From Lysobacteraceae bacterium (GTDB lineage Bacteria; Pseudomonadota; Gammaproteobacteria; Xanthomonadales; Rhodanobacteraceae), in assembly GCA_028871555.1 (NCBI GenBank), contig JAGWNA010000006.1, forward strand, positions 615 to 64,614: DNA of 64,000 nt, in the 5' to 3' direction. The notes under the pieces were generated by a model that did no database searches, was not told the DNA's origin, and saw nothing but the letters and a program-made list of their open reading frames with translations. The translations under genes and the position numbers were made by a program. Below, piece by piece: positions 56,263 through 58,001 of this stretch (positions within the stretch are counted from its first letter, which is position 1; each line of letters starts with the position of its first letter).

Positions 56263-56582
56263 TGGACGCGATCTTTCCACCCACCAGCCGTTATGCGCTG
56301 ACGCCGACCGCAACCTTCGTGCGCGCCGACGGCACGCCGCTTACCTACCTGAAGCGCCGTTTCGTGCCGGCACCGGAGTCGCTCGCTCTGCTGCAGTGGC
56401 ATCGCGTGCTGCAGAACGAGCGGCTGGACAACATCGCGGCGCAATACCTCGGCGATCCCGAACAATTCTGGCGGTTGTGCGACGCCAACCGCGCGTTGCG
56501 TCCGCAGGAGCTGACCGAGACGGTCGGCAAGCCGTTGCGGATCACCTTGCCGGAAGGCATACCGGGGGTGCCGCATGCGTAA
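56262..56582 (+). CDS. LysM-domain baseplate protein
   Basis: SRY...YLKRRFVP, ERLDNIAAQYLGDPEQFWRLCDAN. Confidence 0.85.
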   Translation: MDAIFPPTSRYALTPTATFVRADGTPLTYLKRRFVPAPESLALLQWHRVLQNERLDNIAAQYLGDPEQFWRLCDANRALRPQELTETVGKPLRITLPEGIPGVPHA

Positions 56583-56873
56583 GGCAACGCTGACCGGATA
56601 TCGCCATCGTCACCAGCCCTGTCTGTTCGCAGGCCGCAGGACCGTCGGCGAAGGCAGACTGGCCGTCTGTCGAGACGACGGGCCGAAGGTATGCGGACAG
56701 ACAGGGCTGGCCCCAACGCATGAGTTTTCCACTGACGGGGTGACCCCTGGAAGGCCCGCAGGCTGCACCGCGCGGCTTGCCAAGACGGCCAGTCTTGCCT
56801 GCGCCACGCGGTGCAGCCTGCGGGCCTTCCAGGGGTCATGACGATGGCGATATCCGGTCAGCGTTGCCTTGCG
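56581..56873. mobile_element. ~290-nt multi-hairpin palindromic insertion (MITE/REP-like)
   Basis: Perfect 32-bp terminal IR (56581-56612 / 56839-56870); internal IRs 56613-56631 / 56692-56710 (18/19) and 56741-56772 / 56807-56838 (32/32). Confidence 0.8.
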
Positions 56874-56876
56874 GGC

Positions 56877-58001
56877 ATGCACCTGACCCTGCTGGTCGGC
56901 CCGGTGGTGCCGGTACCGGTGCCGCAGGTCGTGCTCGATGCACTGACCCAGATCGAGGTGGACGCGCCGGACGAGGCGGCGGGCGCGTTCACCCTGCAGT
57001 TCACGCTCAGCGTGCAGTCGCCGCTGCACACGCTGTTCCTGCTCTCCGGTGGCGGCGTGGTGCCGCTGTTGCGGGTGATCGTGGTGGCCACCCTGAACGG
57101 CATGCCCGAGGTGCTGATCGACGGCGTGGTGAGCAGGACCGAGGTACTGCCGGGAGCGGACCTGCGCCACACCACGCTGCAGGTCACCGGCGACGATCTC
57201 ACCGCGGTGATGCAGAAGCTGGAGTATTCCGGCCTGCCGGGCCTGCCGTATCCGGCGATGCCGGCCGAGGCGATCGTGGCGCTGATCCTGGCCAAGTACG
57301 CCTTCCTCGGCATCGTGCCGTTGGTGATCCCCAGCATCGCGATCGACGTGCCGATCCCGACCAACCGCATTGCGACCCAGCAGGGCAGCGATCTGGACTA
57401 CGTGCGCACGCTGGCCGAGCGGGTCGGCTACGTGTTCTACCTCGATCCCGGCCCGGCGCCGGGCATGAGCACCGCGTACTGGGGGCCGAAGGTGAAGGTG
57501 GGCGTGCCGCAGCCGGCGCTGAACGCCGACATGGACGCGGCCGGCAATGTCGAGCAGCTCAGCTTCAGCTACAACGGCAACGCGCGCAGCCTGCCGATCG
57601 TCTACGTCCAGAACGAGCAGACCAAGGTGCCGCTGCCGATTCCGATTCCCGACATCGGCCCGCTCAATCCGCCGCTGGGGCTGATCGATCCGCCGCCGCA
57701 ACGCTTCAACCCGTTGCCCGAGACCGCGAAGTATTCGCCGGTGCGCGCGATGCTGCTGGGCATGGCCGAGGCGGCGAAATCCGCCGACACCGTGACCGGC
57801 CGCGGCAGCCTCGACGTGATCCGTTACGGCCGCGTGCTGAAGTCGCGCCAGCTGGTCGGCGTGCGCGGCGCCGGCCCCGCCTTCGACGGCCTGCACTACG
57901 TCACCCGGGTGCGCCACACGATCAAGCGCGGCGAGTACAAGCAGAGCTTCGAGCTTTCGCGCAAGGGGCTGATCTCCACCGTGCCGCTGGTGCCGCCATG
58001 A
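56877..58001 (+). CDS. Baseplate hub (gpD/VgrG N-terminal-like) protein
   Basis: MHLTLLVGP, QQGSDLDYVRTLAERVGYVFY, GSLDVIRYGRVLKSR.LVGVRGAG; start may be 56838. Confidence 0.8.
   Translation: MHLTLLVGPVVPVPVPQVVLDALTQIEVDAPDEAAGAFTLQFTLSVQSPLHTLFLLSGGGVVPLLRVIVVATLNGMPEVLIDGVVSRTEVLPGADLRHTTLQVTGDDLTAVMQKLEYSGLPGLPYPAMPAEAIVALILAKYAFLGIVPLVIPSIAIDVPIPTNRIATQQGSDLDYVRTLAERVGYVFYLDPGPAPGMSTAYWGPKVKVGVPQPALNADMDAAGNVEQLSFSYNGNARSLPIVYVQNEQTKVPLPIPIPDIGPLNPPLGLIDPPPQRFNPLPETAKYSPVRAMLLGMAEAAKSADTVTGRGSLDVIRYGRVLKSRQLVGVRGAGPAFDGLHYVTRVRHTIKRGEYKQSFELSRKGLISTVPLVPP

Follow-up and report, generated by a model that had tools for sequence, protein, structure and literature searches.

A palindromic mobile element interrupts the very start of the hub gene of an extracellular contractile injection system (eCIS, a phage-tail-like injection machine) in a 64,000-nt stretch of DNA (67% GC) from a Lysobacteraceae bacterium (assembly GCA_028871555.1, contig JAGWNA010000006.1). 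This whole stretch is hereafter called the window, and all coordinates are positions within it. The eCIS operon is recognized from domain matches and synteny, and the element lies on the boundary between the hub gene and the gene directly upstream of it. It is a non-autonomous foldback miniature inverted-repeat transposable element (MITE) belonging to a multi-copy, apparently undescribed family of the Rhodanobacteraceae. The insertion is old, has severed the first four codons of the hub gene and has preserved a TAA stop codon for the upstream gene, and the hub gene has remained under purifying selection. The explanation that best fits the whole is that the MITE inserted on the overlap of the two genes and that the hub was rescued by a start codon provided by the element itself, a reading that we consider probable.

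An insertion on the overlap of two eCIS genes

The native start of the hub gene can be read from its homologs. Among the 120 best hub homologs, 115 begin with [M/V]-L-[K/E/D]-G-[V/I]-H-L-T-L (378 aa). The corresponding ATG of the window is orphaned ahead of the element and overlaps the upstream stop as ATGCGTAA, and the insertion point coincides with the 8-nt stop/start overlap ATGCTTAA between the gpX-like upstream gene and the hub. Empty sites are seen at locus L004 (GTGCTTGAGGGCGTG; CCAA GTG CTT GAG GGC GTG CAC) and locus L005 (GTGCTTAAGGGTGTG; CCGA GTG CTT AAG GGT GTG CAT), and in these the upstream stop overlaps hub codons 2-3. The junction in the window reads ATG C-GTAA-(286 bp)-TTGC-G GGC ATG CAC, in which the element proper, the single copy that the family profile detects in the window, is flanked by a decayed 4-bp duplication; a TA-only model would place the element bounds at 56582-56869. 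Excision of 290 nt rejoins ATG CGT AAG to GGC ATG CAC (deletion of 56583-56872 would restore ATGCTTAAGGGC). The first-pass annotation of this DNA, made from the sequence alone, had proposed that removal of 56584-56873 recreates a plausible ancestral start, and exactly this 290-nt-less form exists in a related strain: a low-abundance relative in the same mine-drainage metagenome has the empty form, with a joint from 56577 to 56868 that 'skips 290'. Transcripts of relatives in soil metatranscriptomes also carry an empty-form joint skipping exactly 290 nt. The proposed ancestral start further agrees with the homolog N-termini and with the empty sites, which follow the pattern GTG/ATG CTT [A/G]AG GGC GTG CAC. 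The element would have transposed into a TA-centred YTAR tetranucleotide, TTAA or TTGA, within ATG-C-TT[A/G]A-GGGC.

The palindrome could in principle be an artefact, as assemblers can create or collapse inverted repeats and the Logan unitigs of the filled form break at 56610 and 56841. These breaks are explained by the 30-bp inverted repeat, at which a 31-mer graph must break. However, contigs of two unrelated studies tile the filled form with 0 mismatches, orthologous copies are present in assemblies from ENA, JGI, Logan and GenBank metagenome-assembled genomes (MAGs), and ~100 paralogous copies occur in isolate genomes; an assembly artefact can be given practically no weight. The first-pass annotation had also left room for homologs that natively begin at MHLTLL, which the N-termini of 115 of the 120 homologs contradict. 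Together, the tiling by independent contigs and the empty-form joints establish a real insertion, and that a MITE inserted at this site is nearly certain.

The same junction is also occupied in locus L007 (Mizugakiibacter sp. MAG, DASVDP010000339.1), where an unrelated foldback insertion of ~185 nt (L007:3816-4000) lies between the upstream gene and the hub. This insertion folds as RNA with -119 kcal/mol (z = -4.1), contains GTAG...CTAC motifs like those of repetitive extragenic palindromic (REP) sequences, and has at its right end an in-frame ATG 15 nt 5' of the hub GTG (ATG CGA ATC GCG GGC GTG). With a different foldback at the same junction, the hub stop/start overlap appears to collect palindromic elements repeatedly. 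In addition, two hubs of 374 aa (P0030 from Mizugakiibacter sediminis and P0031 from Rhodanobacter lindaniclasticus) begin at MHLTLL without the four native N-terminal residues, and to judge from their sequences the two loci may carry a junction insertion too.

Descent of the carriers and restart of translation

The insertion is found in four carrier lineages, namely the window, locus L141, the lineage of L001, L002, L003, L128 and L131, and the MAG locus L075. The four copies point the same way and are each other's closest relatives in the family, and the carriers share the right flank TTG- and the string GGGTCATGACGATGGCG, for which reasons sequence comparison favours a single ancestral insertion. 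A metagenome scan for GGGTCATGACGATGGCGATA returned 13 matches, two of which are true and both from the L001 lineage, the rest being chance matches. The carriers could alternatively represent several independent insertions by the same element sublineage at a hotspot. YTAR sites are rare in the window (55 in 64 kb), some of them being provided by stop codons; L007 has another foldback at the same junction; and the hub of carrier L075 is closest to that of empty-site L004 (95.3% nt identity). Furthermore, the MITE tree, which joins the window with L141 and L001 with L075, disagrees with the flank trees and thereby counts against clean vertical descent. Nor do the hub and upstream-gene trees agree, either with one another or with that of the MITE. 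Judging from this incongruence, from the L075-L004 hub identity and from the window and L141, which diverge by 5% in the MITE and by 13-15% in the flanks, the eCIS locus looks like a recombination mosaic. Mosaic recombination explains the incongruence equally well as repeated insertion, which is also opposed by the common orientation and mutual nearest relationship of the four copies and by the derived TTG- right flank common to the carriers, with GGGTCATGACGATGGCG otherwise found only in the L001 lineage in the metagenome scan. Independent insertions at a hotspot are therefore quite improbable, and a single ancestral insertion remains the favoured reading.

The insertion severed the native start and the first four codons of the hub and is out of frame, and it might be supposed that the hub was inactivated and that the locus is decaying. 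However, dN/dS (the ratio of nonsynonymous to synonymous substitution rates) of the hub is 0.23-0.25 among carriers, in the same range as in empty-site loci, at a third-position divergence between carriers that reaches 0.24. The carrier hubs contain no stops or frameshifts, the in-frame ATGs are conserved, and the baseplate open reading frames (ORFs) 3' of the hub are all full length and intact. The low dN/dS at this divergence means that the hub has been functional long after the insertion, and decay of the locus is highly improbable.

The consequences for the two split genes differ. The upstream gene still ends in frame, at the TAA supplied by the left target-site duplication. The hub, in contrast, is displaced by 290 nt and out of frame, so that its translation must restart downstream, as the first-pass annotation had stated. 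Of the two restart sites proposed there, the ATG at 56838 is conserved, whereas codon 56877 is no general start: it is ATG only in the window, GTG in L001 and L141, and ATA in L075. A second in-frame ATG, at 56844, had not been named. As the old internal codon is ATA in L075, the hub in that lineage would have to start inside the element, at the ATGs corresponding to 56838 or 56844. The string GGGTCATGACGATGGCG is identical in all four carriers, and gene callers place the hub starts of P0002 and L141 at the second ATG (56844). From these sequences we lean towards a hub start at a MITE-borne ATG, 56838 and/or 56844. The hub would then begin with MTMAISGQRCLAG-MHLTLL where it once read MLKG-VHLTLL.

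A stub ORF of 88 codons runs from the orphaned hub ATG; it is open in all four carriers and ends in each at the same TCATGA, where the ATG at 56838 overlaps the stub stop TGA (56839-56841). The stub has no protein family match. This arrangement suggests how ribosomes might reach the new start. They would load at the orphaned ATG 56575, which retains a GGGGG Shine-Dalgarno-like stretch and coupling to the upstream gene, and translate the 88 codons across the element, opening its hairpins on the way. After termination at TGA 56839-41 they would reinitiate, either at the ATG that overlaps this stop (ATGA) or at the next ATG, 3 nt beyond. ATG 56877 is a recent GTG-to-ATG change found in the window lineage alone and might serve as a third start. 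Such a termination-reinitiation bridge is the likeliest route that the sequence suggests, and we put it forward tentatively.

Several observations weigh against a start within the element and against the bridge. No strong Shine-Dalgarno sequence precedes any candidate start, and an AGGGG 10 nt 5' of ATG 56844 is buried in stems. Instead of letting ribosomes pass, an mRNA structure of ~-240 kcal/mol could stall them or recruit RNase III. The open frame and the ATGA are also present in the non-eCIS copies L016, L021 and L090, which makes them look like a fortunate pre-existing property rather than an adaptation, and an open frame of 88 codons says little in GC-rich DNA when the carriers are only four and related. 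The L075 hub might also begin further downstream, at a TTG or CTG, with truncation of its conserved N-terminus. Finally, the metatranscriptomes cover empty-site relatives only, with transcription across the empty form, apart from one low-depth MITE-internal contig. The AGGGG was also considered as a carrier-specific adaptation and is not relied on, a similar GGAGG occurring by chance in L059 and L096.

Soil metatranscriptomes (runs X21 and X22, compared with window 56000-57500) hold contigs that are 88-95% identical to the upstream gene and hub, with one continuous empty-form junction at a depth of ~66. Related eCIS operons are thus transcribed in situ.

The odd hub start of the window is explained by the insertion, and annotators will miscall it: versions of 374, 378 and 385 aa coexist in databases, and the 88-codon MITE frame may be called a gene. 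The locus would provide a natural example in which a target-site duplication regenerates an upstream stop, the end of an element donates an in-frame start and an essential structural gene survives. If true, the reinitiation bridge would be a compact natural model for the rebuilding of translational coupling after an insertion.

The repeat family, its fold and the surrounding operon

The outer inverted repeat of the element has arms at 56578-56621 and 56830-56873 (44 nt, 91% complementary), within which the 30-mer of the left terminus recurs exactly on the minus strand at the right terminus, with 0 matches expected by chance. The A-T pairs 56581/56870 and 56582/56869 extend these 30 bp to the perfect 32-bp terminal inverted repeat that the first-pass annotation had described (Table 1). 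The two hairpins with related inverted loop motifs noticed in the same annotation are likewise present. Hairpin H1 has arms at 56613-56647 and 56676-56710, the basal 19 bp of which contain one T.G wobble, and hairpin H2, an inverted homolog of H1, has arms at 56741-56776 and 56803-56838 (36 nt, 97% complementary); H2 is perfect in the window and mismatched in the other carriers. The 13-nt apical motif of H1, AGACTGGCCGTCT (56656-56668), reads exactly as the reverse complement of that of H2, AGACGGCCAGTCT (56783-56795). Raised depth and loose ends of metagenome contigs at the H1 apex indicate that this apex occurs elsewhere too. The predicted fold is a three-way junction with an RNA minimum free energy of -251 kcal/mol (z = -20.8) and, as DNA, -150 kcal/mol (z = -20.2); 0 of 100 shuffles are as stable. 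The linker at the junction is AT-rich in most family members and is replaced by CCCGAAGGG in the 269-bp variants. In Rfam, no family matches the element at gathering score and only sub-threshold animal and plant microRNA hairpin models are hit (e.g. 48.6 bits versus 90), so that it belongs to no known RNA family. A promoter/terminator motif scan of the element found none, and neither an integration host factor (IHF) site nor an outward promoter was detected.

A scan of a genome collection with the H1 apex gave at least 119 matches, several per genome. Among the matches listed, all hosts are Rhodanobacteraceae or Lysobacterales (Dyella, Rhodanobacter, Dokdonella and Rudaea), and 64 of the at least 119 matches listed have the two-hairpin layout, with the second apex 110-132 nt downstream. 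At least six loci come from the Dyella nitratireducens chromosome and at least nine contigs from Dyella bin724. Sixty complete copies of 268-291 bp align at 83% mean column identity (alignment A1), and a profile search found 99 full-length copies in 1.1 Mb of loci around copies. No frame is conserved open across the family, which is thus non-coding and without a transposase gene. Two terminal subtypes occur, A (GGCAACGCTGATC, the type of the window) and B (GGATGCTCTGATC). Of the 60 copies, 37 have a TA flank on the left, 30 have one on the right and 23 have both. The reconstructed targets among these 23 include CTAG (9), TTAA (8) and TTAG (4), and a 4-bp YTAR duplication accounts for 17 of the 23 intact flank pairs, the other six fitting TA only. 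The multiple copies across the Rhodanobacteraceae bear out the MITE-like nature that the first-pass annotation had suggested and speak against a locus-specific RNA. Identification as a MITE follows from its small size, non-coding nature, inverted termini, target duplication, multiple copies, and filled and empty sites.

No autonomous partner was found, as no terminal pairs >400 bp apart occur in ~950 kb around copies. No recurrent transposase-like protein near copies and no plasmid match were found either, and tblastn with E. coli RayT on the 1.1 Mb around copies gave a best E of 0.49, although a gene present once per genome might lie beyond these 8-kb loci. In the searched literature, no published description of the family was found. 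With no matching autonomous insertion sequence (IS), the transposition chemistry is read from the flanks alone, which is a point against the proposed mode of insertion. The largest cluster of genes near copies is a housekeeping M61 peptidase locus. At L086:4128-4351 and 10 other loci, a MITE lies between this M61 glycyl aminopeptidase gene and an AstE/AspA-like gene. The same intergenic position in 11 genomes shows that individual insertions persist vertically across species.

Variants of the element are also found. One-hairpin forms of ~170 bp (terminus-H1-terminus, a single long hairpin) occur at L018, L019, L053, L056, L067, L097 and L107, and in L033 and L123 H2 has been removed precisely at the junction repeats GGTGATGA/CATCATGA. 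From these forms, the hairpins behave as modules of gain and loss. At L054, L070, L077, L086, L105, L120, L125 and L126, one H1 arm or both contain a nested module of ~49 nt (CACGCGGGGAGGGTACATGGATGTACCCGGCTTTGAGGAGCGAGGA), which includes a small hairpin. This module also occurs once outside any MITE (L085, around 7367), for which reason it may be a second, smaller mobile repeat. Furthermore, P0124 (Dyella sp., 145 aa, annotated as a 'VOC family protein') runs at its annotated end into a copy of the MITE, which encodes its last ~50 residues (…KATLNKYRRRHQPCLFAGHRGVGEGRLAVCRDGGPKACGQTGLAPTC) in the same frame as the stub ORF of the window. The window contains 15 CTAG and 17 TTAA in 64 kb, where roughly 195 and 47 are expected from base composition by our own estimate. 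Such scarce preferred targets may concentrate insertions at stop codons and in intergenic DNA. An assessment of stop-codon targeting by long ORFs gave 32 in one frame versus 47 in the other two, a comparison that carries no weight, as at 67% GC every frame has long open stretches. For genome studies, a widespread repeat of the Rhodanobacteraceae, a group prominent in studies of contaminated groundwater and soil, breaks short-read assemblies at its 30-bp termini.

The fold is maintained throughout the family. RNAalifold predicts this three-way junction for the whole of it (helix 1 being the outer stem, helices 2-4 H1 and helices 5-7 H2), in agreement with the folding proposed in the first-pass annotation. 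Standard pairs occupy 97.6% of cells, compared to 82.7% with shuffled partners and 32-39% with slid partners; the covariation score is 0.412, compared to 0.131 and ~0.05, respectively; and double compensatory changes are seen in 68 of the 95 family pairs. In helix 1, 25 of 29 pairs have double changes and 98.1% of cells pair in the 60 copies. The hypervariable positions of the terminal repeats stay complementary, which means that intrastrand pairing or arm-to-arm copying is maintained; a shared transposase-binding sequence alone is insufficient.

Such pairing raises the possibility, compatible with a MITE origin, that the copy at this locus has been co-opted as a cis-regulatory RNA, in which an RNase III site, roadblock or attenuator lowers or uncouples expression of the hub and the distal baseplate genes and selection on the RNA keeps the pairing; the first-pass annotation had likewise suggested that the element may attenuate, process or uncouple the distal baseplate genes. 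The fold is extremely stable, and among three orthologous carriers 8 of 123 pairs have changed on both sides and still pair, compared to a rough chance estimate of ~0.7. At the base of the stem and outside the element, the outermost bases of the two duplication copies (56579/56872) pair as G-C in the window and in L141, and as C-G in L001 and in L075. Divergence is also lower in the MITE (mean 0.098) than at third positions of the hub (mean 0.174). A precedent exists in the Correia elements, which RNase III binds and cleaves and which affect how neighbouring genes are expressed (PMC2649163). However, the same fold and covariation are found in ~100 copies in unrelated contexts, which makes the fold a property of the element and not of this operon. 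The wobbles in H1 are G.U on the plus strand, whereas H2, in L001 and L141 as in the family, has predominantly A.C mismatches on the plus strand, which are not RNA-compatible, an asymmetry that argues against a single plus-strand RNA as the selected object. The first-pass annotation had suggested a MITE/REP-like element or a structured RNA; the multi-copy, MITE-like nature has held, and the structured RNA is weakened by these A.C mismatches. The reverse use of the asymmetry, as evidence for a plus-strand RNA, was rejected: H1 favours the plus and H2 the minus strand, which reflects H2 being an inverted copy of H1. In addition, 115 of 120 homologous operons are without the element, no terminator-like motif was found in it, and hub dN/dS is unchanged. 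A regulatory RNA selected at this locus is in our view unlikely.

A mutational explanation at the level of DNA is favoured over locus-specific RNA selection, the two not being exclusive. Quasi-palindrome template-switch mutagenesis, known from E. coli genetics, introduces clustered changes in one arm that perfect an imperfect inverted repeat. The MITE copies of the window and L141 differ at 15 of 294 sites, compared to a difference of 13-15% in their flanks. H2 accounts for eight of the 15, and five of these eight cluster at 56811-56823 of its 3' arm; their combined effect is that a mismatched hairpin has become perfect in the window. From these clustered one-arm changes, which are typical of templated correction, the arms are probably kept complementary through template switching. 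The complementarity would then be maintained mainly by templated quasi-palindrome correction together with constraint from the propagation of the family, rather than by operon-specific RNA selection.

The genes around the insertion complete the picture of the locus. A gene of 106-107 aa directly 5' of the hub is also present in L001, L004, L005 and L007. It has no Pfam or NCBIfam match, and its putative gpX/LysM-like nature derives only from its position and a C-terminal motif. Hub homologs are named 'Phage protein D' or 'late control D family' in source databases. The direct sequence evidence for hub identity is weak, with VgrG-related matches at E ~1e-3, and the gpD/VgrG-N-like assignment comes mainly from synteny. 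An AlphaFold model of the hub with its extension was discarded (mean predicted local distance difference test score, pLDDT, 41.8; shallow alignment). Exact-protein look-up gave no record for the upstream protein, P0030 or P0031, and scans of viral contigs with two patterns gave 0 matches.

Table 1. Features of the eCIS locus and of the inserted element
Feature	Position	Strand	Basis or remark
eCIS_core protein	53218-54552		
Upstream eCIS gene, 107 aa, stop TAA 56580-56582	56259..56582	+	ORF and translation
Orphaned original hub start ATG	56575..56577	+	homolog N-termini, empty sites
88-codon stub ORF, orphaned hub ATG to TGA 56839-56841	56575..56841	+	open in four carriers
Left target-site duplication copy GTAA	56579..56582		from ancestral TTAA or TTGA; gives upstream gene its TAA stop
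MITE proper, 286 bp, A-type termini GGCAACGCTG...CAGCGTTGCC	56583..56868	+	nhmmer family profile, E = 1.4e-75
5' outer-stem arm, left terminal inverted repeat	56583..56612	+	exact reverse complement of 56839-56868
Hairpin H1, apex GGCAGACTGGCCGTCTG around 56652-56672	56613..56710	+	repeat search, folding
Unpaired linker at three-way junction	56711..56740	+	alignment A1, columns 130-161
Hairpin H2, inverted homolog of H1, apex AGACGGCCAGTCT	56741..56838	+	
Candidate MITE-borne starts, ATG 56838-56840 and ATG 56844-56846	56838..56846	+	in frame with hub
Hub ORF including putative MITE-encoded extension	56838-58001	+	
3' outer-stem arm, right terminal inverted repeat	56839..56868	+	holds ATG 56844
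Right target-site duplication copy TTGC	56869..56872		TTGG in L001 and L075
Hub gene body (gpD/VgrG-N-like) from window-specific ATG	56877..58001	+	homologs, weak VgrG-related matches, synteny
Phage_base_V	57998-58504		
Weak PAAR/DUF4280-like ORF	58515-58838		
GPW_gp25	58846-59217		
gp6/J-like ORF	59214-61994		

Comparison with known mobile elements

The family has the features of MITEs, namely a length of 268-291 bp, no transposase gene, terminal inverted repeats, a flanking duplication, multiple copies and a filled/empty polymorphism. A different mode of propagation would be that of the REPINs, in which the element moves as folded single-stranded DNA, in a 'clover' configuration, by a single-copy HUH/Y1 enzyme (RAYT-like or other). 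REPINs maintain their hairpins through compensatory changes and can adopt an alternative 'clover' fold with two small hairpins (PMC3116915). Several features agree with this: a stem encloses H1 and its inverted homolog H2, complementarity is kept at hypervariable helix positions as in REPINs, copies persist vertically at orthologous positions between genes in 11 genomes, hairpin modules come and go cleanly, and ~950 kb contain no autonomous IS with matching termini. In contrast, REPINs are ~70-110 nt long, with a GTAG-type head, no long terminal repeats or duplications, and a RAYT gene beside them. The present element is several times longer (~288 bp), has no GTAG/CTAC head (alignment A1), and has terminal repeats of the 30-bp class with TA/YTAR duplications, which are cut-and-paste DDE features unexpected for REP/RAYT or IS200/IS605; the lack of a RAYT homolog in 1.1 Mb is a weak test, as RAYTs are single-copy. 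REPIN-like movement is improbable on this balance. Membership of the REP/REPIN class itself was rejected on the same grounds of long termini, TA flanks and missing head, and as the unit hairpins measure ~98 nt, compared to ~20-35 nt in REP. Likewise, an IS200/IS605-derived PATE was rejected. Such elements have subterminal hairpins on one strand, lack terminal inverted repeats and duplications, and insert 3' of a fixed tetra- or pentanucleotide, whereas the present element is symmetric, with inverted termini, TA on both sides and H2 as the inverse of H1, the wobble positions of the two lying on opposite strands.

We give a similarly small probability to a bolder variant, in which the T-shaped fold, the junction motifs (CGTCACC / GGGTGA / CATCATG) and the invariant apical loops would be needed for single-stranded propagation by a host enzyme, as a new class alongside REPIN/RAYT, and the copy described here would be domesticated as a translational coupler via the 88-codon bridge. 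Independently of this variant, a covarying branched fold without a visible transposase is a reasonable lead on MITE- or REPIN-like propagation.

In target choice, the element can be compared with IS5, which makes a 4-bp duplication at 5'-YTAR-3' (PMC5009759). The 17 YTAR flank pairs (CTAG, TTAA) match this motif and the termini begin with GG, whereas the six flank pairs with TA only resemble IS630/Tc1-mariner-type elements, and neither a transposase gene nor a full-length IS with these termini was found in the DNA around copies; an IS5 affiliation is thus one candidate among others. The pattern of clustered one-arm changes, which mimics compensatory evolution, is in turn shared with quasi-palindrome mutagenesis; the latter is a mutational mechanism and not an element family, and its action here is inferred from the difference pattern.

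The contribution of coding sequence by the element is comparable to that of Rickettsia palindromic elements (RPEs) and intragenic MITEs, in which a palindromic mobile element adds coding sequence to a gene that is still functional (PMC10969869). The right end of the element would similarly supply the hub start codon and ~13 N-terminal residues, and the Dyella VOC-family protein P0124 also has a MITE-derived C-terminus. However, RPEs insert in frame inside ORFs, whereas the element of the window is out of frame, lies on a stop/start overlap and replaces the initiation region.

In effect, to judge by analogy, the element most resembles the Correia elements (CREE, also NEMIS) of Neisseria, which are short and non-autonomous, with terminal inverted repeats and a TA-type duplication, and are often co-transcribed so that the transcript contains a long duplex. 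CREE change adjacent expression via promoters at their ends and via RNase III binding and cleavage (PMC2649163; PMC2229807). The element is unrelated to CREE in sequence, about twice as long and folded into a branched two-hairpin structure with no IHF site or outward promoter detected, and the hosts belong to a different phylum-level range. Membership of the Correia family was therefore rejected, the matches listed being all from Rhodanobacteraceae/Lysobacterales and no promoter-like site having been found, and the likeness is functional and architectural only. What distinguishes the present element from all of these systems is its covarying branched fold without a visible partner, together with a stop and a start rebuilt on a gene overlap.

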